From the NCBI GenBank assembly GCA_034176395.1, contig JAXFUC010000011.1, positions 14,235-78,234 of the forward strand: a stretch of 64,000 nt of DNA. The letters run 5' to 3'. The stretch comes from Bacteroides sp. (GTDB taxonomy: Bacteria > Bacteroidota > Bacteroidia > Bacteroidales > Bacteroidaceae). The notes beneath the pieces were generated by a model. It was not told the origin of the DNA. It worked only from the letters and a program-made list of their open reading frames with translations, and ran no database searches. The number at the start of each line of letters is the position of its first letter. The stretch's first letter is position 1. The position numbers and the translations under genes are program-made. This document shows, piece by piece, positions 10,509-43,761 of this stretch.

Positions 10509-10596
10509 GAGTGCCCACACTTTGCGTCCCAAGTGCCTACACTTTGCGACCTAAGTACCCACACTTTGAAACCTAAGTGCCCACACTTTGAAACTT
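10509..10596 (+). repeat. Tandem array of four 22-bp units (core AAGTGCCYACACTTTG)
   Basis: Units start at 10509, 10531, 10553, 10575: gagtgcccacactttgcgtccc / aagtgcctacactttgcgacct / aagtacccacactttgaaacct / aagtgcccacactttgaaactt. Confidence 0.92.
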
Positions 10597-10686
10597 GGAT
10601 ACAGACACCCGCCATGCACCCGTCCTCGTGCCCGGACAAGAATTGTAAATGCTTGGTATAGACAGCACAGTTTCAATAGAAACGAT

Positions 10687-10694
10687 TATCTTTG
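10687..10694 (+). promoter_or_regulatory. Bacteroidota housekeeping promoter -7 element (TATCTTTG)
   Basis: Matches TAnnTTTG, 35 bp upstream of ATG 10729. Confidence 0.6.
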
Positions 10695-10728
10695 CCCATT
10701 CCAAACGATAAATACTCAGTTATCACGT

Positions 10729-11865
10729 ATGTCTATCACCATTCATAAGGTCGTAACCAAGGATGAGCTGAAGAAATTCATCCGCTTCAATTACGAGTTC
10801 TATAAGGACAATCCCTATTCCGTTCCCGATCTCTATCCCGATATGCTCTACACGCTCGACCGCAATAGGAACGCAGCGTTCGAATTCTGCGAGGCCGACT
10901 ACTTCTTAGCCTATCGCGACGGCAAGATTGTAGGCCGGGTGGCAGCCATCATCAACCATCGAGCCAACGAGAAATGGAACACCAAGCACGTTCGCTTCGG
11001 GTGGATAGATTTCGTGGACGACCCCGAAGTATCGACAGCCCTTTTGCAGGCAGTCGAGAATTGGGGCCGCGAACGTGGCATGACCCACATCAACGGCCCA
11101 CTGGGCTTTACCGATTTCGACGCCGAGGGTATGCTCATCGAGGGCTTCGACCAGCTCAGCACGCTGGCCACCATCTACAATCACCCTTACTATCCTCTGC
11201 ACATGGAGCGACTGGGCTTTGAGAAAGACGCCGACTGGGTGGAGTATCAGATTTACATTCCCCAGAGCATCCCCGACAAACATCGACGCATTGCCGAACT
11301 GGTGCAGCAGAAGTACGGTTTGCAGATAAAAAAATACCGCTCGAACAAGAAAATTGCACGTGAATACGGACAGGCCATCTTCGAGCTACTCAACGAGTCT
11401 TACGGCGACTTATACGGCTTCTCGCCCTTGTCGCCACGGCAGATCGAGCACTACATGCGCATGTTCTTGCCCATTGTGGATCTGCGCATGGTGACGCTCA
11501 TCACCGATTCCGAAGGGCTGTTGGTGGGTGTCGGCATTTCGATGCCCTCACTGTCCGAAGCTTTGCAAAAGGCCAAAGGCAAATTGTTTCCCTTGGGCTG
11601 GTTTTATCTCTTCAAAGCCCTCTTCATGAAGCGCAGGGCCAAGATGCTCGATTTGTTGCTGGTGGCCGTGAAACCCGAATATCAAAACAAAGGTGTCAAC
11701 GCCTTGCTGTTTGCCGACCTCATTCCGGTTTATCAGCAATTGGGCTTCACTTATGCCGAAAGCAACCCCGAGTTGGAGCACAATGGCAAGGTGCAAGCCC
11801 AGTGGGACTACTTTGAAACCCGCCAACACAAAAGACGACGAGCCTACATCAAACCCATCGGCTGA
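10729..11865 (+). CDS. GNAT-like N-acetyltransferase (YghO-like)
   Basis: [13 protein letters not shown]...RFGW.DF, GPLGFTD.D.EGML, YNHPYY motifs. The longer ORF-track start (10588) runs through the repeat and lies upstream of the promoter. Confidence 0.75.
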
Positions 11866-11926
11866 ATACCGATCGAAGACCTCTCGCCCGCTATCACCCT
11901 TCTCTCATCAATCGGACATCGAACAT

Positions 11927-13795
11927 ATGGAACACCTCAATACGCCTATCCAAGAGTCGGTTGCCTACACCGACGACAACATTCGCCACCTCAGCGACAT
12001 GGAGCACGTGCGTACACGCCCGGGCATGTACATCGGTCGGCTGGGAGATGGAGCGCATGTCGAGGACGGCATCTACGTCCTACTCAAGGAAGTGATGGAC
12101 AACAGTATCGACGAGTTCAAGATGAATGCCGGCAAACGCATTGAGATTGTCGTCGAAGACCAGCTGCGCGCCAGCGTTCGCGACTACGGTCGAGGCATTC
12201 CTCAAGGCAAGCTCATCGAGGCCGTAAGTGTGCTCAACACCGGAGGTAAGTACGACAGCAAAGCATTCAAAAAAAGCGTGGGCCTCAACGGCGTGGGTGT
12301 CAAGGCCGTCAACGCTTTGAGCATACGATTCGAAGTGCGCAGTTATCGCGACGGCCAGGTGCGTACGGCCATCTTCTCCAAAGGGATTCTACAAAGCGAT
12401 GAAACCCGCCCCACGAACGAGGAGAACGGAACGTTCATCTTCTTCCAGCCCGACGATACGCTCTTTACCGGCTATCGTTTCCGAGAGGAGTTCATCGAAA
12501 CCATGTTGAGAAACTATACCTATCTCAACACCGGCCTTACCATATTATATAACGGGCAACGAATCCTATCGCGCAACGGCCTTGCCGATTTGCTGAACGA
12601 CAACATGACTTCCAACGGGCTGTACCCAACGATACACCTCAAAGGCGAAGACATCGAGATCGCTTTCACCCACACCGGACAATATGGCGAAGAATACTAC
12701 TCCTTTGTCAACGGGCAACACACCACCCAAGGCGGCACGCACCAAAGTGCATTCAAAGAACACATAGCACGCACCATCAAAGAATTCTTCAACAAAAACC
12801 AGGATTATACCGACATTCGCAACGGGCTGGTGGCAGCCATTGCCATCAATGTGGAAGAGCCGATATTCGAGAGTCAAACCAAGACCAAACTGGGCTCTAC
12901 CAACATTGCGGCCGGAGGCATCAGCGTGAACAAACACGTGGGCGACTTTGTGAAGCAAGAGGTAGACAACTACCTGCATAAGCATGGCGACGTGGCCGAG
13001 GTCATGCTACAAAAGATTCAAGAATCCGAGAAAGAACGGAAGGCCATTGCCGGCGTCACCAAGTTGGCTCGCGAGCGTGCCAAGAAAGCCAATCTGCACA
13101 ATCGCAAGCTAAGAGATTGCCGCGTACACCTCAACGACCCCAAGAGCAAGGAGCTGGCCGAAGAGTCGTGTATCTTCATCACCGAGGGCGACTCGGCCAG
13201 CGGTTCCATCACCAAGAGCAGAGATGTCAACACTCAGGCCGTGTTCAGCCTGCGGGGAAAACCACTGAATACGTTTGGATTGACCAAAAAGGTGGTATAC
13301 GAGAACGAAGAGTTCAACCTGCTGCAAGCGGCACTCAACATCGAAGAAGGTTTGGACGGACTGCGCTACAACAAAGTGATTGTGGCCACCGATGCCGATG
13401 TGGACGGTATGCACATCCGCCTGCTACTCATCACTTTCTTCTTGCAATTCTTCCCCGACCTTATCAAAAAAGGCCATGTGCACATCCTGCAAACTCCTCT
13501 TTTCCGGGTGCGCAACAAGCGAAAGACCATCTACTGCTACACCGAGGACGAACGCATCAACGCCATAGCAGAGTTGGGGCCCAACCCGGAAATAACGCGT
13601 TTCAAGGGTCTGGGCGAAATCTCCGCCGACGAATTCGGGCACTTCATAGGCAAAGATATGCGTCTTGAACAGGTGACCCTTCGCAAAACCGATGCGGTGA
13701 AAGACCTCTTGGAATTCTATATGGGGAAGAACACCTCGGAAAGACAAAACTTTATCATCGACAACTTAGTAATCGAAGAAGATTTAGCCTCATGA
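11927..13795 (+). CDS. parE: DNA topoisomerase IV subunit B
   Basis: [16 protein letters not shown] ATPase [35 protein letters not shown] and DADVDG; start at MEHLNT. Confidence 0.93.
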
Positions 13796-14247
13796 CACGC
13801 CGCGCCATATTCCCCGGAACATTCGACCCATTCACCGTAGGCCATGCCTCTATCGTCAACAGGAGCCTTGGGTTTATGGACGAACTCATCATCGGAATAG
13901 GAATCAACGAAAACAAAAACACCTATTTCCCTATCGAGAAACGCGAAGAGATGATACGCCGACTCTATGCCCATGAGCCACGAGTGAAGGTGGTGAGCTA
14001 CGACAACCTTACGGTAGATCTGGCCAAACAATGGGAAGCCCGCTTTATCATACGTGGCATTCGCACGGTGAAAGACTTTGAGTACGAAGAGACCATCGCC
14101 GACATCAATCGCAAGCTCGAGGGCATCGAGACCATACTCCTCTTCACCGAGCCCGAGCTTACCTGCGTCAGCTCTAGCGTGGTGCGCGAGCTACTGAGCT
14201 TCGGCAAAGACATCAGCCGTTTTCTACCCGAAGGCATGACCATCTGA
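13792..14247 (+). CDS. coaD: Pantetheine-phosphate adenylyltransferase
   Basis: [31 protein letters not shown] motifs; overlaps the parE stop by 4 bp. Confidence 0.96.
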
Positions 14248-14259
14248 TCCTCCCGACGC

Positions 14260-14790
14260 ATGAAGTCATCCGCTCACAATCACCCAACCCACGACACGTT
14301 CGATCAAACGTTTCAACAGTGGTATGAGCCGTTGGTCTACTTTGCCCACTACTTTACCAAGGACCTTGAAGTGGCCAAAGATTTGGTGAGCGATGCCTTC
14401 GAATACCTATGGGTCAACAACGAACGTCTCGACCCCACCACCGTCAAAGCCTATCTCTACTCCATCGTCAGGGCGCGGTGTATCGACCATCTGCGAAAGA
14501 AAGACATCCATGAACGCTACATCGACTTTGCCACCGAGCTAAGCCAACACTTGGCCGAACGGCAAGTGGACAGTGACGAGCCTCGCATTGCAGCCATTCG
14601 CCGAGCGATGCAAAAACTCACCCCCTACAATGCCCACATTCTGGAAGAATGCTATTTGAACAATAAGAAATATAAGGAAGTGGCCCAGCAACTCAATGTC
14701 AGCGTGGCAGCCATCCACAAAAATATCGTCAAAGCACTGCGCATTCTACGGCAAGAATTAACCGAGCAGGGTAACCAAAAGGCTACTTAG
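14260..14790 (+). CDS. ECF-type RNA polymerase sigma-70 factor (Bacteroidota SusC-associated type)
   Basis: Region 2 (AKDLVSDAF..LW, YLYSIVRARCIDHLR) and region 4 HTH (YKEVAQQLNVSVAAIHKNI); precedes fecR. Confidence 0.9.
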   Translation: MKSSAHNHPTHDTFDQTFQQWYEPLVYFAHYFTKDLEVAKDLVSDAFEYLWVNNERLDPTTVKAYLYSIVRARCIDHLRKKDIHERYIDFATELSQHLAERQVDSDEPRIAAIRRAMQKLTPYNAHILEECYLNNKKYKEVAQQLNVSVAAIHKNIVKALRILRQELTEQGNQKAT

Positions 14791-14796
14791 TTCGTA
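14769..14796 (+). promoter_or_regulatory. Putative ECF-sigma promoter for fecR (GGGTAACC-N16-CGTA)
   Basis: GGGTAACC aaaaggctacttagtt CGTATTAA overlaps the sigma gene 3' end, about 35 bp upstream of ATG 14832. Confidence 0.65.
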
Positions 14797-14831
14797 TTAA
14801 CTTATATGTTCCCTTGAAAAGAAACTCGGTA

Positions 14832-15998
14832 ATGAACGAAGAAATACTCTCCATCAGCCCTTCGGAGGAAAGAGCCATCGACCTCATGCAGGCGACGTCG
14901 GACATCGACCTCGAACAGTCGGAGCAGCTGCCACCCGATGCCGACAGTCTGGAGGCCTGTCTCGACATTGCCGAGATTCAACTCTTCCTTCAGCAACAAC
15001 GGCACCCCTTGCCGCTGAACACAGCCGAGGAACTGAGAAAGTTCCACCAAAAACAACAGAAAGCACCTGCTCGCACCACCTTGTATCGTTGGCTCATACC
15101 GGCCTTGACCGCGGCAGCTTCGTTGCTACTCCTTTGGCTCGTCCGCATCGACAAGCCGCAACCCATGCAACAACCCACGCCCATCGCCGTATTCCGTGCC
15201 GACACATCGGCCGCCAAGCATCCGCTACTCACCACTTTTGAGCAAGACACCGAACAGGGAATCACCTGCCCCACCTCCACCGACGCAGGCACCTACCTAC
15301 ACGATTCCAAGCTCGACTATCGCAACCTACAAGCCACCACGACCCTCTACGAAGGGAAAAACCGCATCCACCGGCTGAGCATACCACGCGGCGAAACCTT
15401 CAGCGTCCTCTTGTCCGACGGCACCGAGGTTTATCTCAACACTGACAGCCGCCTCACCTACCCCGCAGTTTTCAAAGGCAATCGCCGCATAGTGAAACTC
15501 GAGGGCGAAGCCTACTTCAACGTAGCCAAGGATGCTACACGCCCATTCATCGTCGAAACCGGTAACCTACAAGTGGAGGTCTTGGGCACCGAATTCGATA
15601 TATGTAACTACGGCAACCTGCCGGCACGCATCACTCTCTTGACCGGACAGGTGGCTGTGAAGGATGCCGACAACGCCGAGCTTACCTATATGAAACCGGG
15701 CGAAAGCCTACAAATAGACCAAGACGGTACACGTACCCTGACACAAATAGACCCCGAAGCCAATATCTATTGGCGCGAAGGCTACTTCTACTTTGACAAT
15801 GTCACGCTGGCCGAAATGATGCAAGAAATCGGACGTTGGTACAATATCGACGTGGATATAGCCAACGAGCAGCTCACCGCCCTACGCCTACATTTCTTCG
15901 CCAACCGTAAACAAGGCATCGAGCAAGTTATTACCCAGCTCAACCGTATGGAAAGCATCCATGCACGGCTGGAGAATGGCAAGCTCCTCATCCATTGA
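14832..15998 (+). CDS. FecR-family anti-sigma factor
   Basis: Single TM segment; LSIPRGETFSVLLSDGTEVYLN..S.L.YP, LEGEAYFNV and VLGTEF FecR motifs; DUF4974-like C-terminus. ATG 14832 preferred over TTG 14814. Confidence 0.9.
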   Translation: MNEEILSISPSEERAIDLMQATSDIDLEQSEQLPPDADSLEACLDIAEIQLFLQQQRHPLPLNTAEELRKFHQKQQKAPARTTLYRWLIPALTAAASLLLLWLVRIDKPQPMQQPTPIAVFRADTSAAKHPLLTTFEQDTEQGITCPTSTDAGTYLHDSKLDYRNLQATTTLYEGKNRIHRLSIPRGETFSVLLSDGTEVYLNTDSRLTYPAVFKGNRRIVKLEGEAYFNVAKDATRPFIVETGNLQVEVLGTEFDICNYGNLPARITLLTGQVAVKDADNAELTYMKPGESLQIDQDGTRTLTQIDPEANIYWREGYFYFDNVTLAEMMQEIGRWYNIDVDIANEQLTALRLHFFANRKQGIEQVITQLNRMESIHARLENGKLLIH

Positions 15999-16164
15999 CC
16001 GCGTGCCGGGCTTCTGCACTTTCCATTCCTACCCTCAGCAAGCCCCAAGCACCGCTCCCCACAAATAGGTAGCGAGCATGGAAATTCGTACCTACTTCTC
16101 GCTATTTTCGCCCCCTCATCCACAGAAAAAAAACGACCCACTACTTCGTAGTAAAGGAAACATG

Positions 16165-16172
16165 TACTTTTG
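16165..16172 (+). promoter_or_regulatory. Housekeeping promoter -7 element (TACTTTTG)
   Basis: TAnnTTTG match 44 bp upstream of the TonB receptor ATG. Confidence 0.6.
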
Positions 16173-16215
16173 TATCGCATTTTTAACACACACATATATC
16201 CCTTTCTATTGAACT

Positions 16216-18765
16216 ATGAAACAAATCGTGCTTGCCCTTTTCGCGGCTTTGCTTAGCATCGGTCTGCTGCATGCAGAAGAAAACAATTCCAAACCCAAAA
16301 CAGATGCCCACATCGTGGGACACGTCATTGACCAGGCCACCGGCGAACACATACCGGGTGTAAGCATTCTCATCAAAGGCACAACCATAGGCACTGTGAC
16401 CGACCAAACGGGTCACTACCGAATGATCAACTTGCCCGTAGGAACCAAAACGTTGGTGATGAAAGCCATCGGCTACAAGACTCAAGAGCGAACCGTAGAA
16501 GTGAAACGCGGTGTGACCTTGGAAATCAATTTCCATTTGGAGGAAGACATTGCAGCACTCGACGCAGTGGTCGTATCGGCCAACCGCACCGAAACCACCC
16601 GTCGCCTGGCTCCCACACTCGTAAACGTTATCGACACCAAGCTGTTTGCGGCTTCCAATGCCAACAACCTGGCACAAGGCGTAATCTTCCAACCCGGGGT
16701 GCGCGTGGAAAACAACTGTCAGAACTGTGGCTTCAACCAAGTGCGCATCAACGGAATGGACGGACGCTATACACAAATCCTCATCGACTCACGCCCCATC
16801 ATGAGTGCCTTGGCAGGCGTTTACGGGCTGGAACAGATACCCACCAACATGATCGAGCGTGTGGAAGTAGTACGCGGAGGAGGCTCGGCCCTCTTCGGCT
16901 CATCGGCCATTGCAGGGGTGTTGAACATCATCACCAAAGAGCCTACACAGAATTCGTTCATGGTCAACGAATCATTGGGCTTCACCGGCATGAAGAAACT
17001 CGATAACAATCTCTCTTTCAACGGCTCACTTGTCAGCGACGACCAACGCGCCGGTGCCATGTTCTTCGGACAAATGAGAAAGCGCGCCGCTTGGGACAAA
17101 GACGGAGATGGCTTCTCCGAACTGGGAGAGATCGACGCCCGATCGCTGGGAACACATTTGTATTTCCGCCCATCCGACTACAGTCGCATCACTGCCGAAG
17201 TACACGGAATACAGGAAGACAGAAGAGGTGGCGACCACGTAGACGAGGCTTGGCCCGAACACGTGGCTGCCGTGGCCGAGGCCACCAGACACTCGGTGTA
17301 CAGCGGCAATGTCAAATACGATCTGCGTTCGGCCGACACGAAACATCACTTCCAAGCCTACGCATCCTCACAACTTGTCAATCGTAAGAGCTACTACGGA
17401 GGTATAGGCGATTTGGAAGGACACGGAACATTGGGCAAGCCCATCGTTCCCTCCAAGTATGGCATCAACTACGGCGTCACCAAAGGACAAACCCATATGG
17501 GAGGCTTGCAATATTCTTACGATTTTGACCGCTTCCTCTTTATGCCCGCCCAAATCTTGGTGGGTGCAGAGTACACACACGATCGCCTGAACGACGTGAT
17601 GCCCATCCGTAGCTGGATAGTATCGAAAACCGGCGAAGCCATGTATCCCGAGCTGAAACAACGCATCAACAACTGGAGCCAGTTTGCCCAACTGGAGTGG
17701 AAGAATGCGCGCTGGAGCCTACTCATGGGTGTTCGTGTGGACGAGCATTCGGAAGTTAAGAAGGCCATCCTTAGCCCTCGTGCCACTTTGCGCTACAACC
17801 CCACTCAAGACATCAATTTGCGAGCCACCTATGCCAAAGGCTTCCGTGCACCCCAAGTCTTTGACGAAGACCTGCACGTGGGCGTAGTGGGAGGCGAAGC
17901 ACAAAAGGTCTTCAACGTATCCAACCTCAGACCCGAGGTAAGTCACGCCTTCAGCTTGAGCGCAGACCTCTATCGCCGTTTCGGAGAGGTTCAAACCAAC
18001 CTCTTGGTCGAAGGCTTCTATACACGCCTCACCGATGTGTTCACCCTTCAAGAGCTGGACAACCGGAACGATGGCATCAAACGCTACAACCGCACCAACG
18101 GAAGCGGCGCCAAAATCATGGGTGCCAATGTGGAAGGTAAGCTGGCTTTCCGCCGCATCCAACTGCAAGCCGGCCTCACACTGACCTCCAGCAAATTCGA
18201 CCAAGAAGAAGAATGGGGCGAACGCACCCTGCTCACTACCACCGATGGGCTGCCGGCCAAAGACGGTTCGAACTTCAAGAAAGATGCCGACGGAGTGTTT
18301 GAAACCGAGAAACAAAACAGCCGTGAGATGCTACGCACTCCCAACACCTACGGCTACTTCACCCTGGGCTGGAATCCCACCAATGCTTTGACTCTCGCAC
18401 TGACCGGCACTTATACCGGCACAATGAAAGTACACCACGAGATTGAGTGGGGCGTAGGTTCGGCCTTGACAGACATTCAAGCCATCGCCAACGGTACACG
18501 CACAGCGGGCGTAGTGGATGCAAGCAACAGCGCACCTCGCTGGGACGAGCTTGTCAACACCCCATCGTTCTTCGACTTGGGCGCCAAAGCCAGCTATGAC
18601 TTTGCCCTCACCTCGGCCACTCGCCTACAACTGTATGCCGGCATGAACAACCTCTTCAATTCGTTCCAAAAAGACTTCGATCGAGGTGCCAGCCGTGCCA
18701 GTGGCTACATCTACGGGCCTACTCAGCCCCGAAGTTTCTACATGGGTTGTAAATTTAGTTTCTAA
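16216..18765 (+). CDS. TonB-dependent receptor (non-SusC, CirA/FepA-like) with CxxC in the plug
   Basis: Signal peptide, carboxypeptidase-regulatory-like domain, RVENNCQNCGFNQVRING, IERVEVVRGGGSALFGSSAIAGVLNIITK, C-terminal Phe; no SusD follows. Confidence 0.92.
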   Translation: MKQIVLALFAALLSIGLLHAEENNSKPKTDAHIVGHVIDQATGEHIPGVSILIKGTTIGTVTDQTGHYRMINLPVGTKTLVMKAIGYKTQERTVEVKRGVTLEINFHLEEDIAALDAVVVSANRTETTRRLAPTLVNVIDTKLFAASNANNLAQGVIFQPGVRVENNCQNCGFNQVRINGMDGRYTQILIDSRPIMSALAGVYGLEQIPTNMIERVEVVRGGGSALFGSSAIAGVLNIITKEPTQNSFMVNESLGFTGMKKLDNNLSFNGSLVSDDQRAGAMFFGQMRKRAAWDKDGDGFSELGEIDARSLGTHLYFRPSDYSRITAEVHGIQEDRRGGDHVDEAWPEHVAAVAEATRHSVYSGNVKYDLRSADTKHHFQAYASSQLVNRKSYYGGIGDLEGHGTLGKPIVPSKYGINYGVTKGQTHMGGLQYSYDFDRFLFMPAQILVGAEYTHDRLNDVMPIRSWIVSKTGEAMYPELKQRINNWSQFAQLEWKNARWSLLMGVRVDEHSEVKKAILSPRATLRYNPTQDINLRATYAKGFRAPQVFDEDLHVGVVGGEAQKVFNVSNLRPEVSHAFSLSADLYRRFGEVQTNLLVEGFYTRLTDVFTLQELDNRNDGIKRYNRTNGSGAKIMGANVEGKLAFRRIQLQAGLTLTSSKFDQEEEWGERTLLTTTDGLPAKDGSNFKKDADGVFETEKQNSREMLRTPNTYGYFTLGWNPTNALTLALTGTYTGTMKVHHEIEWGVGSALTDIQAIANGTRTAGVVDASNSAPRWDELVNTPSFFDLGAKASYDFALTSATRLQLYAGMNNLFNSFQKDFDRGASRASGYIYGPTQPRSFYMGCKFSF

Positions 18766-18792
18766 TCACCATTTTTATTCTGTATTGTTCGC

Positions 18793-18830
18793 AAAAGGCT
18801 CGGCAATCGCCACGATTGTCGGGCCTTTTT
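18793..18830 (+). terminator. Rho-independent terminator after TonB receptor
   Basis: AAAAGGCTCGGCAATCG-cca-CGATTGTCGGGCCTTTTT stem (G-U pairs) with T-run. Confidence 0.8.
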
Positions 18831-19216
18831 CTTTGAACATAAAACGCTTGTTCGCACCCCTCTCTTCTTACGGCCTCCCCGCTCGAACAAGCAAGCATTG
18901 CGAGCGACAACACCTCGCGTACAATGGTCGCACACCCTTGGGAAAATCCTGAAGTAAAGGTTCCGACAACATCCATTGTGCTTGATTCAAGAGCGTTCAA
19001 GGCATGAACCGTACAGTTCAACATTCGGGATATACAACCCAAGTCACGAACGTTAAGAATCGCAGTACGATCGGTATTCGAGGCTCGATGCCCAGAGAAA
19101 AACAAGCCCACTTGCAACGATTTGCCACACGGCGTTCCGGCAGTATCCCTCGACATCTATGGTTCGAGGAGCTTGACTGTGCTCGTCTGCACCCAATCGT
19201 TCGAGAGTCGGTAAAC

Positions 19217-19256
19217 AAAAAGCGATGCCCCGACTTGCTCGTCGAGACATCGCTTT
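19217..19256 (-). terminator. Probable terminator after thioredoxin gene
   Basis: AAAGCGATG..CGAC-ttgctc-GTCG..CATCGCTTT hairpin, followed by a T-run on the minus strand. Confidence 0.6.
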
Positions 19257-19278
19257 CCTATGGGGATATAAGGGGAGC

Positions 19279-22852: not shown

Positions 22853-22955
22853 CCTCTCCCCGCACTTGGCTCACAAACCACCCACACTTACCGAATAAAG
22901 TGCCTACACTTTGCCGGCAAAGTGTGGGCACTCACCGACTCAAGTGCAAACACAT
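22853..22955. repeat. 22-bp repeat family copy with central 36-bp palindrome
   Basis: AAGTGCCTACACTTTG-ccgg-CAAAGTGTGGGCACTC at 22898-22933, flanked by degenerate units at 22-bp period; 22917-22940 reverse complement matches 10502-10525 at 23/24. Confidence 0.85.
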
Positions 22956-33216: not shown

Positions 33217-33250
33217 ACCTCGCTTGCGAGATACATACATAGACCATGCC

Positions 33251-34866: not shown

Positions 34867-34916
34867 TGTTTATGAAGTATTTGTAGTTAGTAGTCGTCAA
34901 AACGAGCGAACCTTAT

Positions 34917-35285: not shown

Positions 35286-35355
35286 AACCATATACCTATG
35301 AAAGACCACTGGATAAACCGAATGCCTACGATCGAAAATCCAAGGCTTCGTTCCA

Positions 35356-35363
35356 CAAAGGTA
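35356..35363 (-). promoter_or_regulatory. Housekeeping promoter -7 element (TACCTTTG)
   Basis: TAnnTTTG on minus strand about 70 bp upstream of DUF1304. Confidence 0.55.
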
Positions 35364-35421
35364 GGAGAAATCTACCGAGATTTGACCAATGGCAGGGTTA
35401 AAGATTCTTGTTTGGTCCATC

Positions 35422-35503
35422 CAATGTACAAACACTTAGTCCACAAAGTGTAGGCACTTAAGTCGCAAAGTGTGGGCACTTCGTTTGCAAAGTGCAGGTA
35501 CTC
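35422..35503 (-). repeat. Tandem array of four 22-bp units, reverse orientation
   Basis: Units at 35422, 35444, 35466, 35488: caatgtacaaacactt / caaagtgtaggcactt / caaagtgtgggcactt / caaagtgcaggtactc. Confidence 0.9.
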
Positions 35504-35714
35504 GGAAAACAACGAACGTAGGGGCCGTTTGTCTGCCATCCAAGGACTTCGTCCACCCCAACCAAACCATCGCCTCTCAACATCTCGCTCCTTCCCATTC
35601 AGCAGTCGCACTGTGCCGGGCAACGGGCTTCACCTCCCCCACCCAACGAAGATGAGCACCGAGGAAGCACTAAAGTTTCCCCATCCACTTGCCCCTATAT
35701 CTGCGTAAAAACCT

Positions 35715-35722
35715 TATTTTTG
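35715..35722 (+). promoter_or_regulatory. Housekeeping promoter -7 element (TATTTTTG)
   Basis: TAnnTTTG 27 bp upstream of the rlmN ATG. Confidence 0.55.
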
Positions 35723-35748
35723 CGGAGATAAAACGGCAAACAGACAAA

Positions 35749-36801
35749 ATGACAGACAAAGAACCCCTCCTGGGAAAGACGTTGATAGAGCTGCAAGCAG
35801 TGGCCAAACACTTGGGAATGCCTGCCTTTGCCGGCAAGCAAATGGCCCAATGGCTATACGAGAAGAAAGCCGCTTCCATCGACGAAATGAGCAACCTCTC
35901 GCTCAAGCACCGCGAACTGCTCAAGCAATCCTACGAGGTAGGGTTGACACCGCCCATAGAGGCTTCGCATTCCATCGACGGCACCATCAAATACCTCTAC
36001 CCCATAGGTAGCCACACGGTGGAGGCCGTCTACATTCCCGAAGACGAGCGAGCCACGCTTTGCGTCTCCTCGCAAGTGGGGTGCAAGATGGGGTGTAAGT
36101 TCTGCATGACGGGCCGACAAGGATTCTCGGCTCAGCTCACTGCCCATCAAATTCTGAATCAAATACAAGCTTTGCCCGAACGAGACCGACTGACCAACCT
36201 CGTGTTCATGGGCATGGGCGAGCCGCTGGACAACCTGGACGAAGTGCTCAAGGTATTGGAGATCCTGACCTCGGCCTACGGATACGGTTGGAGTCCCAAA
36301 CGCATCACCGTGTCGACCATCGGTCTGCGCAAGGGGCTACGACGCTTCATCGAGGAGAGCGACTGCCATTTGGCGGTGAGTTTGCACAGCCCCATCCCCG
36401 CCCAGCGCGCCGACCTCATGCCCGGTGAAAAGGCATTCTCCATCACCGAGGTGGTGGATCTGCTGCGCAACTACGACTTCAGCAAACAACGTCGCCTTTC
36501 GTTCGAGTACATCGTCTTCAAAGGTGTCAACGATTCGCCCGTCTATGCCAAGGAGCTACTCAGGTTACTTCGTGGGTTGGACTGCCGCATCAACCTCATT
36601 CGCTTTCATGCCATTCCCGACTCGCCGCTCCAAGGTGCCGAGATGGACACCATCGTTGCCCTACGCGACTACCTCACCTCGCACGGATTGTTCACCACCA
36701 TCCGGGCTTCGCGTGGCGAAGACATCTTCGCAGCCTGCGGTATGCTTGCCACCGTCAAAAAGAAAGCAGGCGAACAATCTGAAATGACCTCACCCGAATA
36801 A
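35749..36801 (+). CDS. rlmN: 23S rRNA A2503 / tRNA A37 C2-methyltransferase
   Basis: Radical SAM CVSSQVGCKMGCKFC, MGMGEP, SLHS and C-terminal AACG; start MTDKEP. Confidence 0.95.
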   Translation: MTDKEPLLGKTLIELQAVAKHLGMPAFAGKQMAQWLYEKKAASIDEMSNLSLKHRELLKQSYEVGLTPPIEASHSIDGTIKYLYPIGSHTVEAVYIPEDERATLCVSSQVGCKMGCKFCMTGRQGFSAQLTAHQILNQIQALPERDRLTNLVFMGMGEPLDNLDEVLKVLEILTSAYGYGWSPKRITVSTIGLRKGLRRFIEESDCHLAVSLHSPIPAQRADLMPGEKAFSITEVVDLLRNYDFSKQRRLSFEYIVFKGVNDSPVYAKELLRLLRGLDCRINLIRFHAIPDSPLQGAEMDTIVALRDYLTSHGLFTTIRASRGEDIFAACGMLATVKKKAGEQSEMTSPE

Positions 36802-36821
36802 TAACCCTCATCCCCACAGTC

Positions 36822-37847
36822 ATGAAAAGAATTTCCTTTTTTTTCGCACTGATATACACAGCCTTCGTTTGCATTTCATGCGTAGGCACCAACCCACGCT
36901 CCAGCGGTCGGCCTTTCGAGCTGCTGGTGGTCATTGAACCTCAACTCTGGGATGTTCCGGCAGGGCAAGCCATTCAGGCGGCATTGGACATGGATGTACC
37001 GGGCCTGCCGCAGTCGGAACCCTCGTTCAGAGTGATGCACGCCGCCCCACAGCACTTCGACTCCACACTCAAGCTCATACGAAACGTCATCGTGGTGGAG
37101 GTGAGCGACAAATTCACCAAGGGATCTTTCAAATCCACCAAAGACCTCTACGCCAACTCACAGGTGATACTCACCATCCAAGCTCCCGATGCAGAGAGTC
37201 TCGAAGCCTTTGTCAACGAAAATAGGGCGGCCATCGTGTCCTACTTCACCCGCATCGAGATGAACCGTCAGATCCAAACCTTGGAGAAATCGCATAGTGC
37301 ACGCATCGACCAATTGGCCGATAGTCTTTTCGGCAGTCACATTTGGATACCGGCCGAACTGCAATCCTACAAAGTGGGGCAGGACTTCCTATGGGCATCG
37401 ACCAACGCCGCCAGCGGCGACCGCAACGTGGTGATCTATTCCTATCCCTATACCGACAAGGACACCTTCACCAAGGACTTCTTCGTTCGCAAACGCGACT
37501 CGGTGATGCAAGTAAACATTCCCGGGTATAAAGAAGGAGTATATATGGGCACCGACTCGCTGCTGACCACCACCAAAGCCATCAGCGTTCAGAAGGAATA
37601 TGCCTTTGAGGCACGCGGTTTGTGGCGCATGGTGGGCGATTTCATGGGAGGCCCCTACGTGTCGCACACCCGCCTGGACAAGACCAAGAACCGCATCATC
37701 ACGGCCGAAGTCTTTGTGTACTCGCCCGACAAGATGAAACGCAACCTCATTCGCCTCATGGAGGCATCGCTCTACACCCTCAGACTTCCCGGCGACTCGA
37801 CGGCCACTGCCATTCCCTTGGACATGGTCAACGAGCGCACACAATAA
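36822..37847 (+). CDS. DUF4837 family lipoprotein
   Basis: Lipobox CIS-C; SSGRPFELLVV, PGLPQSEP.F, RGLWRM..DFMGGPYVSH motifs. Confidence 0.8.
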   Translation: MKRISFFFALIYTAFVCISCVGTNPRSSGRPFELLVVIEPQLWDVPAGQAIQAALDMDVPGLPQSEPSFRVMHAAPQHFDSTLKLIRNVIVVEVSDKFTKGSFKSTKDLYANSQVILTIQAPDAESLEAFVNENRAAIVSYFTRIEMNRQIQTLEKSHSARIDQLADSLFGSHIWIPAELQSYKVGQDFLWASTNAASGDRNVVIYSYPYTDKDTFTKDFFVRKRDSVMQVNIPGYKEGVYMGTDSLLTTTKAISVQKEYAFEARGLWRMVGDFMGGPYVSHTRLDKTKNRIITAEVFVYSPDKMKRNLIRLMEASLYTLRLPGDSTATAIPLDMVNERTQ

Positions 37848-37879
37848 ACATTCATCCCTCGTACATAAGACATATTCTC

Positions 37880-38971
37880 ATGGAAGAACAAAAGATAAGG
37901 GTGGGCATCACCCAAGGCGACGTCAACGGAGTGGGCTACGAAGTCATCTTGAAAGCCTTTGCCGACGCCACGATGTTCGAACTCTGCACCCCCATTGTAT
38001 ATGGCTCGCCCAAGGTGGCAGCCTATCACCGCAAAGCGTTGGATTTGAATACCAACTTCAGCATCGTAAACTCAGCCTCCGAAGCACTGCCCGGACGGAT
38101 GAGCGTGGTCAATTGCACCGACGATGAAGTCAAGGTAGAATTTGCCCAACCTTCCGTGGAATCGGGCAAAGCAGCCTTGGGCGCACTCGAGCAGGCCGTG
38201 CGCGAATATCGCGAAGGCCTTATCGACGTGCTGGTAACCGCTCCCATCAACAAGCATATCATCCGCGAGGCCGGTTTCAACTTCTCGGGACATACCGAGT
38301 ACATCGAAGAACGCCTGGGGCAGGGCAACAAAAGCCTCATGATTCTCATGAAGGACGAACTGCGCATAGCCTTGGTTACCACCCACCTACCCCTGGGCGA
38401 AGTGTCGGCTGCCATTACGAAAGAACTGATTCAGGAGAAGATACTCATCTTCCACCAAACCCTTAAACAAGACTTTGGCATCGGTGCCCCACGCATCGCC
38501 GTATTGGCACTCAATCCCCATGCCGGCGATAACGGTGTGCTGGGGCGCGAGGAGCAAGAAATCATCATCCCCGCCATCCAAGAGCTGGAGGCCAAGAAAG
38601 TGTGGTGCTACGGCCCGTATCCGGCCGACGGTTTCATGGGCACAGCCGGCTACCGACACTTCGACGGCGTGCTGGCCATGTATCACGACCAAGGTTTGGC
38701 TCCGTTCAAAGTCATCGCCATGGACGAAGGTGTCAATTACACCGCAGGCTTGCCGGTGGTGAGAACCTCGCCCGCACACGGCACGGCCTACGACATCGCC
38801 GGCAAAGGTGTGGCCGCCGAAGACTCGTTCCGCCAAGCCGTCTATGCCGCCATCGACATCTATCGCAACCGGAAACGCTTGAAGCAGGCACAAAACAACC
38901 CGCTACGCAGACAGTATTACGAAAAACGAGACGACAGCGACAAGCTCAAGCTCGATTCGGTCGACGAATAA
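37880..38971 (+). CDS. pdxA: 4-hydroxythreonine-4-phosphate dehydrogenase
   Basis: GITQGDVNGVGYE, VTAPINK, GHTEY, LNPHAGD, AMYHDQGL, RTSPAHGTAYDIAGK. Confidence 0.95.
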   Translation: MEEQKIRVGITQGDVNGVGYEVILKAFADATMFELCTPIVYGSPKVAAYHRKALDLNTNFSIVNSASEALPGRMSVVNCTDDEVKVEFAQPSVESGKAALGALEQAVREYREGLIDVLVTAPINKHIIREAGFNFSGHTEYIEERLGQGNKSLMILMKDELRIALVTTHLPLGEVSAAITKELIQEKILIFHQTLKQDFGIGAPRIAVLALNPHAGDNGVLGREEQEIIIPAIQELEAKKVWCYGPYPADGFMGTAGYRHFDGVLAMYHDQGLAPFKVIAMDEGVNYTAGLPVVRTSPAHGTAYDIAGKGVAAEDSFRQAVYAAIDIYRNRKRLKQAQNNPLRRQYYEKRDDSDKLKLDSVDE

Positions 38972-39007
38972 TCGCCACGCCCACTTCTCACCCTCACGAA
39001 CCACAGC

Positions 39008-40252
39008 ATGACGAAAGCAGAAATACAACAGGTAAAACTACGCTTCGGAATCATTGGCAACACCGAAGCATTGAGCCGCGCCATCGACGTGGCCATTCAG
39101 GTGGCACCCACCGATCTGTCCGTACTCATCACCGGAGAGAGTGGTGTGGGCAAGGAAAGTTTTCCCCAAATCATCCACCAGTACAGCCGCCGAAAGCACG
39201 GACAGTACATCGCTGTGAACTGCGGAGCTATCCCCGAAGGCACAATCGACTCGGAGCTGTTCGGTCACGAAAAAGGGGCATTCACCGGAGCCATCGGAGA
39301 ACGCAAAGGATACTTTGGCGAAGCGGACGGTGGCACCATATTCCTCGATGAGGTGGGCGAACTTCCACTGCCCACACAAGCCCGACTGCTGCGGGTACTT
39401 GAGAACGGCGAATACATCAAGGTGGGGTCGTCCAAGGTGCAAAAGACCGATGTTCGCATCGTAGCAGCCACCAATGTCAACCTGGCTCAAGCCATCAGCG
39501 AAGGGAAGTTCAGGGAAGACCTGTTCTATCGCCTCAACACCATCCCCATACAAGTACCTCCCCTGCGCGAGCGGGGCGAAGATTCGCTGCTCTTGTTTCG
39601 TAAGTTTGCCGCCGACTTTGCAGAGAAATACCGCATGCCGGCCATTCAGCTGACCGACGAAGCCAAGCAATTGATACTCTCGTATCCCTGGCCCGGCAAC
39701 GTGAGGCAGTTGAAAAACATTGCCGAGCAAATATCCATCATCGAGACCAATCGGGAGATTACCGCCTCCATGCTCGAATCCTATCTGCCTCGACAAGCCT
39801 CGCAACGCCTCCCCGTCTTTTTAGGTGGCTCGCCCGGTGAAGGCAGAAAGGGTTTTGAGAGCGAACGAGAGATTCTCTACTCCGTGCTTTTCGATATGCG
39901 ACAAGAGGTGGCCGAACTCAAAAAGATGGTGCACAACCTGATGGCCGAGCGAGGCAGTTCCATCGTCGGCACCCACGCTGCGCCCGTACAGCACACCACA
40001 GAACACACCATTGCCACGTTGATACCGGCCGTTGCAACCGCTCCTTCGCTACGTATAGCGGAGAAGGACGATACCGATATTCAGGACACTGAGGAGTATG
40101 TCGAAGAACCCCTTTCCCTGGACGAAGCCGAGAAAGAACTCATTCGCAAAGCCCTGGCCAAGCACCATGGAAAGCGCAAGTACGCAGCACGCGACCTCAA
40201 CATATCCGAACGCACATTGTACCGCAAAATCAAAGAATATGGACTGGAGTAA
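39008..40252 (+). CDS. Sigma-54-interacting AAA+ regulator with Fis HTH, no receiver domain
   Basis: GESGVGKE Walker A, SELFGHEKGAFTGA, FLDEVGEL, FREDLFYRLN, WPGNVRQL, C-terminal HTH. Confidence 0.92.
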   Translation: MTKAEIQQVKLRFGIIGNTEALSRAIDVAIQVAPTDLSVLITGESGVGKESFPQIIHQYSRRKHGQYIAVNCGAIPEGTIDSELFGHEKGAFTGAIGERKGYFGEADGGTIFLDEVGELPLPTQARLLRVLENGEYIKVGSSKVQKTDVRIVAATNVNLAQAISEGKFREDLFYRLNTIPIQVPPLRERGEDSLLLFRKFAADFAEKYRMPAIQLTDEAKQLILSYPWPGNVRQLKNIAEQISIIETNREITASMLESYLPRQASQRLPVFLGGSPGEGRKGFESEREILYSVLFDMRQEVAELKKMVHNLMAERGSSIVGTHAAPVQHTTEHTIATLIPAVATAPSLRIAEKDDTDIQDTEEYVEEPLSLDEAEKELIRKALAKHHGKRKYAARDLNISERTLYRKIKEYGLE

Positions 40253-40769
40253 GAACCTATACCTACGCATCTTCGCACCGGTGATACTCATCGGAGTGCT
40301 GGGAGCTTGCAGCATCTCCTACAAATTCAACGGGTCGTCCATCAACTACGACCGGGTGAAAAGCATCTCCATTGCCGACTTCCCCATTAAGTCCGAATAC
40401 GTATATGCCCCCTTGGGAACACGTTTCAACGAGGAGCTGAAAGACATATTCGTGCGCCAAACACGCCTGCAACTCCTGCGCCCCAGCCAAGAAGCCGACC
40501 TGCGCATCGAAGGGGAGATTGTGGGTTACAACCAGTACAACCAAGCCGTTTCGGCCGATGGCTACTCAGCCGAGACGAAACTCACCATCACCATCAACGT
40601 GAGGTTCGTAAACAACACCAATCACAAAGAAGATTTCGAGCGACAGTTCACTGCCTTCCGCACCTATGACTCCAGACAATTGCTAACCGCCGTACAAGAC
40701 GGACTCATTGCCGAGATGACGCAAGAAATCACCGAACAGATATTCAACGCCACCGTCGCCAATTGGTGA
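40239..40769 (+). CDS. lptE: LptE family lipoprotein
   Basis: Lipobox LGA-C-SISYKFNG, ADLRIEGEIVGY, RFVNN..EDFE..F motifs; start MDWSKN. Confidence 0.8.
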   Translation: MDWSKNLYLRIFAPVILIGVLGACSISYKFNGSSINYDRVKSISIADFPIKSEYVYAPLGTRFNEELKDIFVRQTRLQLLRPSQEADLRIEGEIVGYNQYNQAVSADGYSAETKLTITINVRFVNNTNHKEDFERQFTAFRTYDSRQLLTAVQDGLIAEMTQEITEQIFNATVANW

Positions 40770-40796
40770 CACGGCCTTTCCATTGACCGACCGCAC

Positions 40797-41537
40797 ATGA
40801 ACCCCTCACAGCTACAACAGTGGATTCGTCGCCCCGAATTGCTCGATCGCAACAGCCTCTACGAACTGCGCAATCTCTTGGCACGCTATCCCTACTTTCA
40901 AACGCTGCGACTGCTCTATCTCAAAAATCTCTATCTGCTGCACGATAGCAGCTTCGGGAGCGAGCTGAGAAAATCGGTCATCTATGTACCCGACCGCAGG
41001 CGTCTCTTCTACCTCATCGAAGGCGAGCACCGTCTCACTCCACCTATCGATTCCGAGCAGAGCGAGGCCCCCACGGATGTGCCCCAAGAAGGGGTGGATC
41101 GCACACTGGCCCTCATCGAAGCCTTCCTGGCGCAAAGCGACGAAGCGATCCAAGAAGACGAACTTCCGCTCACCGATTACATCACCGACTACACGGCCTA
41201 TCTGCTACGAGAGTCCGATGAGCCTTCATCGGGTCTACCTTTGCCTCAACTGCGTCGACAAGACCTCATAGACAATTTCATCGAACAAGAATCACCCACC
41301 CGATCGATGGATACGCCCACCGAGCACAGCACGGATGAAACGACTGCCACGAGCGAAGTGGAAGAAGACTTTTATTTCACAGAAACCTTGGCAAAAATCT
41401 ACATCAAGCAACAGAAGTACGAAAAGGCACTGGAAATTATTAAGAGGTTAAGTTTGAAAACTCCAAGAAAAAACGCTTACTTTGCAGACCAAATTCGTTT
41501 CTTGGAGAAACTGATTATTAACGCTAACTCAAAATAA
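40797..41537 (+). CDS. Conserved TPR-containing protein
   Basis: LARYPYFQTLRLL N-terminus; FTETLAKIYIKQQKYEKA...YFADQIRFL TPR C-terminus. Confidence 0.75.
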   Translation: MNPSQLQQWIRRPELLDRNSLYELRNLLARYPYFQTLRLLYLKNLYLLHDSSFGSELRKSVIYVPDRRRLFYLIEGEHRLTPPIDSEQSEAPTDVPQEGVDRTLALIEAFLAQSDEAIQEDELPLTDYITDYTAYLLRESDEPSSGLPLPQLRRQDLIDNFIEQESPTRSMDTPTEHSTDETTATSEVEEDFYFTETLAKIYIKQQKYEKALEIIKRLSLKTPRKNAYFADQIRFLEKLIINANSK

Positions 41538-41546
41538 ATAGAAGAG

Positions 41547-41936
41547 ATGTATTTAGTACTCATTATCCTGATGGTTGTTACAGCCCTGCTGATGTGCTTC
41601 ATCGTCCTGATTCAGAACTCTAAGGGTGGTGGATTGGCATCGGGTTTCTCGTCTTCCAACGCCATTATGGGCGTGCGGAAAACAACCGATTTTCTGGAAA
41701 AAGCCACATGGACTTTGGCTGCTGCAATGGTGGTACTCAGCGTATTGGCCGCCTATGCACTCCCCTCTGCCTCCACAGAGAACGCTTTGATTGAACAAGC
41801 GCGCAAAGAGCAGCAAACCAATCCCTACAACCTTCCGGCAGGAACCAACGCACCTGCTGCCACTGCTCCCACCTCGGACGCCATCCCCACACAAGATGCA
41901 CCGGCCGAAGGCACTCCTGCTCCCACAGCAGAATAA
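41547..41936 (+). CDS. secG: Preprotein translocase subunit SecG
   Basis: IVLIQNSKGGGLASGFSS...GVRKTTDFLEKATW. Confidence 0.95.
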   Translation: MYLVLIILMVVTALLMCFIVLIQNSKGGGLASGFSSSNAIMGVRKTTDFLEKATWTLAAAMVVLSVLAAYALPSASTENALIEQARKEQQTNPYNLPAGTNAPAATAPTSDAIPTQDAPAEGTPAPTAE

Positions 41937-41994
41937 AGCATTCCATTGTCAAGCAGGCGAGACGACCGAATCGTTCACCTACCGACAACCCCAT

Positions 41995-42047
41995 AAAGAA
42001 GCGAGGCAGCCCATCTCCGACAAGAAGAGAAGCTGCCTCGCTTCTTT
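41995..42047 (+). terminator. Terminator-like hairpin after secG
   Basis: 16-bp perfect inverted repeat AAAGAAGCGAGGCAGC / GCTGCCTCGCTTCTTT. Confidence 0.7.
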
Positions 42048-42097
42048 GCTTGGTGCAAGCTCACAACGACTTTTGTATCACTAAAACCTAATAACGT

Positions 42098-43498
42098 ATG
42101 AACACCACGAAAGGAATCAAACAAACCTTGCGAGACTCGGCCTTGGCTCGCTGGACAGCACTCGTACTCGTAGCATCCAGCATGTTCTTTGCCTATATGT
42201 TTGTCGATGTACTCTCGCCCCTACAAACCATGTTGGCCACCCAGCACAACTGGGATGCAGACACTTACGGAACATTTGCCAGCTCGGAGTACTTCTTGAA
42301 TGTCTTTGTCTTCTTCCTCATCTTCGCGGGCATCATCCTCGACAAGATGGGCATTCGCTTCACAGCCATCCTCTCGGGCGTGGTCATGGTAGTGGGTGGA
42401 GCCATCAAGCTCTATGCCATCAGCCCCCTATTTGTCTCCGGCAACGGTTTGTACGACTGGCTCAACTCATTCTGGACCTCCTTCCCCGCCAATGCCAAAT
42501 TGGCCTCATTGGGCTTTGCCATCTTTGGATGTGGCGTAGAGATGGCCGGCATCACCGTGTCAAAAGCCATCGTCAAATGGTTCACCGGCAAGGAATTGGC
42601 ACTGGCCATGGGATTGGAGATGGCCATCGCACGCCTGGGCGTGTTTGCCGTATTCCGTCTCTCACCCCAAGTAGCCAACTGGGGTAGCCCCGATGTGGTT
42701 CGTCCGGTGGCCGTGGTATGTGCCTTGCTCTGCATCGGCCTACTTTCGTTCATCGTCTATTCGTTGATGGACAAGAAGCTGGATGCCCAGTTGGGCGAAG
42801 CTACCGAAGGCGAAGCCGAAGAGCCGTTCAAGCTCAGCGACTTGGGAATCCTCTTCACCAGCCGTACGTTCTTGGTTGTGGCGCTGCTGTGCGTGCTCTA
42901 CTATTCGGCCATCTTCCCCTTCCAAAAGTTTGCCACCGGCATGCTCGAAAATCGCTTGGGCATGGACACCACCGAGGCATCCAACCTCTTTTCGTGGTTT
43001 CCCATCGGAGCCATGGCATTGACTCCGTTGCTGGGCGGCTTCCTCGACCGGGTTGGTAAAGGTGCCACCATGCTGATGCTGGGTGCCTTGCTCATGTCGG
43101 GCTGTCACCTCATCTTTGCCCTTTATCCCCTCGACGGTGGGGCAACATCGCGGCTCGTGGCCTATGCAGCCATCATACTGCTGGGCGTTTCGTTCTCGCT
43201 CGTCCCGGCTGCCTTGTGGCCGTCCGTACCCAAACTGGTGGAAAATCGGTACCTAGGTTCGGCCTACTCGGTCATCTTCTGGATTCAAAACATAGGTCTA
43301 TGGGCTTTCCCCATGATCATCGGTAAGGCACTTGTATGGGCCAATCCCGGCGTGGAAGCAGGTGGAACATACGATTACACCGCACCCATGCTGATTTTTG
43401 CCTCACTGGGTGTCATCGCCTTCCTGTTGGGCATGTATCTCAAGACCGAAGATCGCCGCAAAGGCTACGGACTGGAACTTCCGAATATCAAAGAATAA
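42098..43498 (+). CDS. Major facilitator superfamily transporter
   Basis: About 12 hydrophobic segments; GIILDKMGIR and GGFLDRVGK motif A repeats. Confidence 0.9.
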   Translation: MNTTKGIKQTLRDSALARWTALVLVASSMFFAYMFVDVLSPLQTMLATQHNWDADTYGTFASSEYFLNVFVFFLIFAGIILDKMGIRFTAILSGVVMVVGGAIKLYAISPLFVSGNGLYDWLNSFWTSFPANAKLASLGFAIFGCGVEMAGITVSKAIVKWFTGKELALAMGLEMAIARLGVFAVFRLSPQVANWGSPDVVRPVAVVCALLCIGLLSFIVYSLMDKKLDAQLGEATEGEAEEPFKLSDLGILFTSRTFLVVALLCVLYYSAIFPFQKFATGMLENRLGMDTTEASNLFSWFPIGAMALTPLLGGFLDRVGKGATMLMLGALLMSGCHLIFALYPLDGGATSRLVAYAAIILLGVSFSLVPAALWPSVPKLVENRYLGSAYSVIFWIQNIGLWAFPMIIGKALVWANPGVEAGGTYDYTAPMLIFASLGVIAFLLGMYLKTEDRRKGYGLELPNIKE

Positions 43499-43537
43499 GC
43501 ATATAAAGCCAAGACGTCGGCTCAAGCATACATACGA

Positions 43538-43575
43538 AATCGCCACCTTTCATCGAGTTATGAAAGGTGGCGATT
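43538..43575. terminator. Perfect 16-bp inverted repeat after MFS gene
   Basis: AATCGCCACCTTTCAT-cgagtt-ATGAAAGGTGGCGATT; lacks a clear T-run. Confidence 0.55.
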
Positions 43576-43681
43576 CTGCATTGATAAACAACCGGTTGTC
43601 CAAGGATAGAGCCCTCACACTTCGCCCTCATGCACCGCATCTCTTGCTTCCCACTTGCCAACAGCCTATACTTAGCCAACG

Positions 43682-43761
43682 AAGTGCCTACATTTTGCGA
43701 CCAAAGTGCAGGCACTTAAGGTGCAAACCATAGGCACTTGATCGGGAAAGTGTTCGTGCTT
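43682..43761. repeat. 22-bp repeat family copy with 36-bp palindrome and two further reverse units
   Basis: AAGTGCCTACATTTTG-cgac-CAAAGTGCAGGCACTT (43682-43717); further units at 43724 and 43746. Confidence 0.85.

Follow-up and report, generated by a model that had tools for sequence, protein, structure and literature searches.

A dispersed family of 22-bp-phased palindrome arrays in a gut-type Bacteroides genome

Introduction

What is the short tandem repeat that recurs between unrelated genes of a Bacteroides genome, and what kind of reader, if any, does it serve? The question was raised by a stretch of 64,000 nucleotides (C11:14235-78234, contig JAXFUC010000011.1), referred to here as the window, in which an original prediction, made from the letters alone, had described tandem arrays with a 22-bp period at four intergenic loci. 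The repeat was read either as a lineage-specific element resembling repetitive extragenic palindromes (REPs) or the small transposable elements with inverted repeats known as MITEs, or as a phased array of sites for a DNA-binding protein. The assembly to which the window belongs (G000, a gut-type member of the Bacteroidales) comprises 2.19 Mb in 154 contigs, with 50.7% G+C and a completeness of 96%. We have found that the four arrays belong to a family of about 172 arrays of a 14-bp palindrome held in a strict 22-bp register. With modest confidence we lean towards the view that this family is an orphan and highly amplified member of a class of two-turn-phased protein-binding-site arrays of the Bacteroidales, which grows by duplication of its units.

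Interspersed palindromic repeats have been well studied in Proteobacteria, in the form of REPs and bacterial interspersed mosaic elements (BIMEs) with their REP-associated tyrosine transposases (RAYTs). The Bacteroidales are a dominant order of the gut, and no paper on 22-bp-phased palindrome arrays in this order was found. Arrays of this type inflate the number of spurious open reading frame (ORF) calls, and they may be mistaken for operators or promoters.

Results

The repeat unit consists of AAGTG, a 4-nt centre and CACTT, which together form a 14-bp dyad, followed by an 8-nt linker, and it recurs every 22 bp. It had been described as a 16-nt core with a 6-nt linker; the period was right, but the unit is better written as AAGTG-N4-CACTT with the longer linker. 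In a genome-wide search the 16-nt core gave 103 exact matches and 259 with up to one mismatch, and the reversed pattern of the same motif, used as control throughout the genome-wide counts, gave none; further copies of the repeat do therefore exist. The half-site motif AAGTG-N4-CACTT was found at 333 exact and 270 one-mismatch sites, as compared with 3 and 90 for the control. Of 350 distances between neighbouring sites, 316 were of 22 bp, 30 of 44 bp and two of 66 or 88 bp, and only two (67 and 87 bp) were off phase. Unit starts lie 22 bp apart on the same strand, 20 bp apart in plus/minus pairs and 24 bp apart in minus/plus pairs, so that the spacing between dyad centres is a constant 22 bp in every orientation of the units.

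Chaining of the sites produced 177 arrays of at least two units, about 172 of which have at least three, with some 830 units in all. Arrays of four units predominate (87), followed by those of five (45), three (25) and six (13), with a single array each of seven and eleven. About 40% of the units are exact, and exact single units are practically absent from the genome. The centres are mostly of the form Y-N-N-R, namely CCTA/TAGG, CCCA/TGGG, CAAA/TTTG and CCTG/CAGG. The same family emerged from a self-match scan that made no use of the motif and covered periods 12-45: a single peak was seen at period 22 (141 loci), with 18 more loci at 44, and 135 of the 141 loci carry the AAGTG core. Altogether the arrays amount to 16.4 kb and fill 149 of the 595 intergenic gaps of at least 150 bp. 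Their layout follows no fixed architecture; unit patterns are heterogeneous and there are no terminal inverted units. A double dyad built of 11-bp half-units was considered and rejected, as the linkers are less self-complementary than shuffled ones and the apparent symmetry of a first logo came from mixed orientations.

Given one unit, the half-site positions of the next are 85-92% conserved and positions 18, 19 and 22, in the linker, come close to random, figures that are partly ascertained because the arrays were located through their half-sites. Among 3,720 pairs of half-site positions there were 716 one-sided changes and 15 compensatory ones, and the centres are rarely self-complementary. 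Conserved half-sites, free linkers and uncompensated changes form the pattern expected of a dimeric protein that reads two 5-bp half-sites, and it is the phased array of protein-binding sites, among the readings put forward at the outset, that fits this conservation best. When folded as single strands, head-to-tail arrays gave z = -1.6 to -3.0 relative to shuffled sequences, with long hairpins appearing only where units are inverted, and an Rfam search returned no family match for the arrays.

Linkers of adjacent units within an array agree at 4.4 of 8 positions, as compared with 3.2 of 8 for random pairs, and some arrays contain runs of near-identical adjacent units, for example those on contigs C125 (more than 11 units) and C110. 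Together these observations show that an array grows where it stands, by tandem duplication of its units. Recent copying of entire arrays from one locus to another has left no trace: no pair of arrays shares linkers and centres beyond the shuffled null, the best pair agreeing at 31 of 36 positions against 28-30 in the null. An all-against-all comparison of the 200-bp flanks revealed no segment common to different loci, and the ends of the arrays decay through two to three degenerate in-phase units without a defined terminus. With unique flanks and gradually decaying ends, the arrays thus lack terminal inverted repeats as well as any leader or tail, and the MITE features that had been anticipated did not materialize.

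One array lies within the coding sequence of murC (C42:4754-4811), where three in-phase units, two of them exact, are read in frame and 66 bp have been overwritten. In a comparison with the orthologues of a second Bacteroidaceae genome (G044, SBF912) and 13 relatives no insertion or deletion was seen, and each residue of the segment has its counterpart in the alignment, in a variable part of the protein; even the synonymous positions of a conserved Y-T-Y fit the repeat unit. Since murC is unchanged in length across the 14 orthologues, the alignment shows that the array replaced existing coding DNA in place, and a simple insertion model does not explain it. Other array-like stretches of three to four units, some of them degenerate, were noticed in long ORFs at C33:16692, C149:25701, C97:7378, C56:45124, C116:27568 and C41:2648; these ORFs include those for an alpha-2-macroglobulin-like protein, RecN, an S8 peptidase and PriA.

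Most arrays (157 of 172) are intergenic, with 46 in divergent, 82 in tandem and 21 in convergent gaps, a split that roughly follows the room that each kind offers. Array orientation relative to the genes is unbiased (37 vs 29), and no fixed distance to gene starts was found. In tandem gaps the arrays lie nearer to the upstream stop (median 120 bp) than to the downstream start (median 218 bp). The neighbours of the arrays are unrelated housekeeping genes, and those in the window encode a SusC-like receptor, a sulfatase, an M24 peptidase, a DUF1304 protein, RlmN, a major facilitator superfamily (MFS) transporter and a DUF3127 protein. The arrays of contig C11 are positioned at 0.5, 10.0, 24.7, 37.1, 49.7 and 57.9 kb, with spacings of 9.5, 14.7, 12.4, 12.5 and 8.2 kb. 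In a hand tally of about 75 distances between neighbours on the same contig the median was about 9 kb, and only one distance fell below 4 kb, one split array aside; usable gaps occur every 3.7 kb or so, and a quarter of them are occupied. From the hand tally the arrays look evenly spaced, and their placement along the contigs may be over-dispersed.

In the window, which also contains SusC/SusD-type loci, the 16-nt core with up to three mismatches was matched 12 times, as compared with 0.80 expected from 100 dinucleotide-preserving shuffles, none of which got to 12. The four arrays, in coordinates of the window, are:

Array 1, 10487..10596, plus strand: degenerate unit at 10487 (3 mismatches), then units at 10509, 10531, 10553 and 10575, arranged head to tail, whose centres are CCCA, CCTA, CCCA and CCCA in that order; in the divergent gap between a SusC-like receptor gene (6927-10259, minus) and a plus-strand gene.
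Array 2, 22854..22955, mixed orientation: degenerate units at 22854 and 22876, then good units at 22898 (centre CCTA), 22920 (TGGG, opposite orientation) and 22942 (CAAA), all in a single 22-bp register; in the divergent gap between a sulfatase gene (minus) and an M24 aminopeptidase gene (plus).
Array 3, 35424..35503, core on the minus strand: units at 35424 (2 mismatches), 35446 and 35468 (both exact) and 35490 (2 mismatches); in the divergent gap between the DUF1304 and rlmN genes.
Array 4, 43660..43761, mixed orientation: units at 43660 (3 mismatches), 43682 (1), 43704 (0), 43726 (3) and 43748 (2); in the convergent gap between the MFS and DUF3127 genes.

Loci 1 and 3 are head-to-tail arrays, in which Tandem Repeats Finder reported a period of 22 (10510-10590 and 35444-35502), and loci 2 and 4 are of mixed orientation. 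All four run on into degenerate in-phase units. The tandem arrays described in the original prediction are present at all four loci, and so are their gene contexts, three divergent gaps and one convergent gap; with the degenerate units counted, the limits of the arrays become those listed above. A match of 23 of 24 positions that had been noted between loci 1 and 2 was also recovered; positions 10502-10525 were correct, and the partner proved to be the reverse complement of 22918-22941, one nucleotide away from where it had been placed. As single-stranded DNA array 2 would form a long hairpin (z = -5.7), and array 4 is bracketed by strong terminator-like hairpins of the MFS and DUF3127 genes (43539-43576 and 43780-43839).

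No two-unit AAGTG core was matched in 40 related genomes, which are about 70% identical to this one in genes at the DNA level. With 259 matches in one genome, none in the control and none in two-unit form in the relatives, the repeat is lineage-restricted, dispersed and non-coding, as had been proposed. A broader scan of the GTDB, with one genome per species and the exact two-unit pattern, gave 22 stretches, some of which are single tandem repeats in unrelated genomes, probably chance matches or unrelated repeats. Others belong to genome-wide families in a few small metagenome-assembled genomes (MAGs) from gut or rumen. Allowing up to two mismatches, with a control of 0, two-unit matches numbered 90 in SBF912, 14 in another Bacteroidaceae MAG, 23 and 9 in two Kiritimatiellia and 5 in a Verrucomicrobia bin. 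In SBF912, of which 770 kb were sampled and whose proteins are about 57% identical to those of the Bacteroides studied here, the unit is AAAAGTGCCGGCACTTTT plus 4 nt, exactly 22 bp, and the 77-87 arrays found in that sample correspond to the density seen here. In four syntenic gaps shared by the two genomes the longer gap was always in the array-bearing genome. Orthologues flanked by an array on the same side in the two genomes were examined for a possible partner gene, but all 17 proved to be housekeeping genes.

Collections of viral contigs, plasmids and phages gave no array match, and metagenome contigs of the Joint Genome Institute (JGI) gave no copy of the CCYA-centred core of this genome; for a comparison between strains, the only other contig found was identical. 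The JGI contigs do carry AAAGTGCRYGCACTTT arrays of another organism. In this Verrucomicrobia-type organism (L130-L160, metagenome Ga0265298; L001, L004, L012) the AAAGTGCRYGCACTTT arrays have three units and often lie at contig ends, and several of the contigs share one conserved flank, GACCGGGAGTCGCTGGCGGATTCTG, so that in this organism the AAAGTGCRYGCACTTT array may belong to some larger repeated element.

A periodicity scan of two relatives uncovered arrays of the same period with other palindromic cores, 16 loci in 400 kb of genome G011 and 3 in 150 kb of G015. Genes of the DUF6078 family (PF19555), of which there are four in G011 (L122, L124, L126, L127) and two in G015 (L123, L125), all have a tandem array of 22/23 bp within 300 bp (6 of 6), with the array downstream of the gene in five cases. 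Elsewhere in G011, at loci far from these genes, two of the cores that adjoin them were found again (TAAACTG-N-CAGTTTA and GGGAACGACCGTTACC). Both DUF6078 copies of G015 were seen to hold an in-frame stop. Of 24 relatives in the same genus 21 have DUF6078, but it was met in none of the 16 other families of the order, and a search for literature containing 'DUF6078' returned none. Like the arrays described here, the DUF6078-linked arrays have a 22-bp period, a 13-16-bp palindromic core with a short linker and three to six units, and are dispersed between genes. They differ in that several cores occupy a few loci each, whereas here one core occupies about 170, and in having a DUF6078 gene beside which a same-core 'home' array can stand. 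The AAGTG core is also found in Verrucomicrobia, Kiritimatiellia and Lentisphaerae genomes that have no DUF6078.

PF19555 is absent from the present genome, even at 96% completeness, from G044 and from a third Bacteroidaceae genome (G047), and the genomes of the Planctomycetes-Verrucomicrobia-Chlamydiae (PVC) group also lack it; thus the pairing of gene and array that defines the class in the relatives was not found here. A profile made from the G011 proteins reached a best E-value of 0.22 on this genome, as compared with 1e-24 and 4e-15 for positive controls. The sole Pfam trace of DUF6078 scored 17.4 bits against a cut-off of 27 and lies at C1:1-900, at the low-G+C start of a contig, in an ORF that is overlapped by a longer ORF on the opposite strand and has no array nearby. 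The match is probably a spurious one, unless the contig itself is a stray that does not belong to the bin. Small Cys-rich ORFs adjoining the arrays were also considered as partners, and none was consistent.

Discussion

In the reading that we favour, a dimeric sequence-specific protein would contact the two 5-bp half-sites of each unit in double-stranded DNA, across a centre that it does not touch, and the 22-bp register, about two helical turns, would bring each dimer onto the same face of the helix as the one before it. The AAGTG family would be an orphan of the DUF6078-type class, either with its partner gene lost after a burst of amplification or with another protein as its partner, and new arrays might arise by copying or conversion that leaves no target-site signature. 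Dyad-symmetric sites in helical phase are familiar from the 14-bp operators of lambdoid phages, the parC and sopC centromeres and the 22-bp TnsB sites at the ends of Tn7. Like cooperative operators and partition arrays of this kind, the present units are dyads with a putatively uncontacted centre, set in helical phase so that adjacent dimers could share one DNA face. Those systems, however, are confined to one or two loci, adjoining the gene that encodes their binding protein, and here there are about 170 loci and no linked gene. The iteron reading is not supported either: plasmid iterons and partition sites adjoin a rep or par gene and number one or two loci, and here there are about 170 chromosomal loci with no match in the plasmid or phage collections.

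Several observations weigh against the favoured reading. No binding protein was identified for the arrays, and the DUF6078 genes that accompany such arrays in relatives are missing. If the partner is indeed gone, what is conserved may merely date from a past burst, with no constraint acting at present, and the conservation figures carry the ascertainment described above. Arrays of this genome and G044 coincide at orthologous positions 10 times, as compared with 9.4 expected once gap length is controlled; a raw odds ratio of 3.8, which had suggested positional conservation, vanished with that control. In addition, the gene calls in the assembly are crude ones made for this analysis.

On a bolder view, the arrays might form a chromosome-wide lattice of loading sites for a dimeric DNA-binding protein, kept some 9-10 kb apart and acting as structural barriers to supercoiling or transcription, not as gene-specific switches, with DUF6078 proteins as readers in sister genomes and another protein here. 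Spacing would then be kept by an interference resembling target immunity at the birth of an array, or by selection for domain boundaries, and a new array could overwrite the DNA already present at its site, as happened in murC. We regard this more ambitious proposal as rather doubtful. It is unlikely, in turn, that the arrays are neutral and decaying remains of a past DUF6078-type burst whose partner gene was lost. The absence of DUF6078 from this genome and its presence in most same-genus relatives would suit such a relic, as would the minority of exact units, the fading of array ends into degenerate units and the want of recent copies between loci, but with 2 of 350 distances off phase the register is kept far better than would be expected under neutral decay. 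Near-identical adjacent units also speak of recent duplication, and three independent genomes (G000, G044 and G047) keep high-copy arrays of the AAGTG type without DUF6078.

In the REP/BIME model, units or their junctions would act as single-stranded hairpins copied by a RAYT, a transposase of the Y1 HUH type, and clusters would arise as BIMEs do. High copy number, extragenic location, restriction to one species among those compared (about 172 arrays, 157 of them intergenic, and none in 40 relatives) and clusters that mix palindromic units of either orientation are shared with REPs, which likewise consist of short palindromic units at hundreds of extragenic sites and occasionally lie within genes. 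It is known that REPs can stand inside genes and that a genome may lose its RAYT genes and yet retain its REPs (PMC3733652). Units with a TAGG centre give GTAG just before GCACTT; in REPs a GTAG or CGTC tag is conserved at one end of the unit, and here GTAG is formed only by CCTA/TAGG-centred units (229 of 832, on one strand), the other centres giving GTGG, GTTT and the like. The linked tyrosine transposase that the original prediction had envisaged was not found, with no match to PF01797 in G000, G044 or G047, all Bacteroidaceae with the same core, and with control genomes positive; RAYT genes typically have REPs on their flanks, and the Y1 loci of PVC genomes (G041-G043) are without AAGTG-N4-CACTT sites. 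A REP is an imperfect palindrome of 20-40 nt with a stable and maintained stem, whereas the arms here are just 5 bp, fold weakly and change mostly on one side only, the linkers are free, and nothing in BIMEs corresponds to the strict 22-bp register. We consider this model quite improbable. Still less likely, in our judgement, is an element of the BrickBuilt kind, a minisatellite carried inside a non-autonomous transposon and moved in trans by the transposase of an insertion sequence (IS). BrickBuilt repeats are also found in the Bacteroidota, in Porphyromonas gingivalis, as always intergenic, spacer-less tandem units (23 bp there, 22 bp here) of variable number (PMC4596501), the number being 3-11 in our arrays. 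BrickBuilt repeats have, however, a leader and a tail segment with terminal inverted repeats of the IS5 type, in 19 copies (PMC4596501), and the present arrays number about 170, have unique flanks without any conserved leader, tail or terminal inverted repeat, and do not share linkers; no multi-copy gene or IS was detected in the assembly. CRISPR arrays differ as well, with repeats of 24-48 bp, unique spacers of similar size and cas genes, in contrast to a 14-bp dyad and 8-nt linkers that are alike within an array.

Like the transposon models, regulation of adjoining promoters by a global transcription factor, of which the family would mark a very large regulon, has some features in its favour. 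As many as 46 arrays lie in divergent promoter gaps, and 14-bp palindromes at two-turn spacing resemble cooperative operator sets; in Bacteroides, the operators of hybrid two-component systems (HTCS) consist of a pair of direct repeats with a spacing of about 21 bp, which stand at specific promoters of polysaccharide utilization loci (PMC3878776). The placement of the arrays argues otherwise. With array 4 lying between two terminators, 21 arrays between convergent genes and no bias of orientation, a promoter regulon is hard to defend, and it is made harder by the varying distance to gene starts, by tandem-gap arrays that stand nearer to the upstream stop and by neighbouring genes of unrelated function. 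It is a poor candidate, about as improbable as the REP/BIME model.

Whatever their origin, the exact two-turn register, the species-specific cores and the overwriting of murC, an essential gene, indicate that such repeats are born and maintained in a way not covered by the families compared here. The genome is an extreme case, in which one core occupies a quarter of the gaps of at least 150 bp without the gene that accompanies such arrays in relatives, and for that reason it offers a natural test of whether the arrays need a dedicated reader, and of whether they are kept as selfish DNA or are of use to the chromosome.

Three known sequence motifs were compared with the unit and set aside. The Crp-like motif of Bacteroides, TATGTT-N-TA-N-AACATA, is a different sequence. 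A sigma-54 promoter, GGCAC-N7-GC, does span the unit junctions, but the orientation of the arrays is unrelated to gene direction. The half-site also resembles boxes of the AAAGTG type attributed to MraZ, but the true operator is a separate GTGGRG repeat with a 10-bp period, and its being separate counts further against the regulon. This MraZ operator was located at C78:23350-23440, upstream of mraZ, where it reads GGTGGAAGAT, TGTGGGGAAA and TGTGGAGAAA, and an AAGTG array lies 200 bp further upstream.

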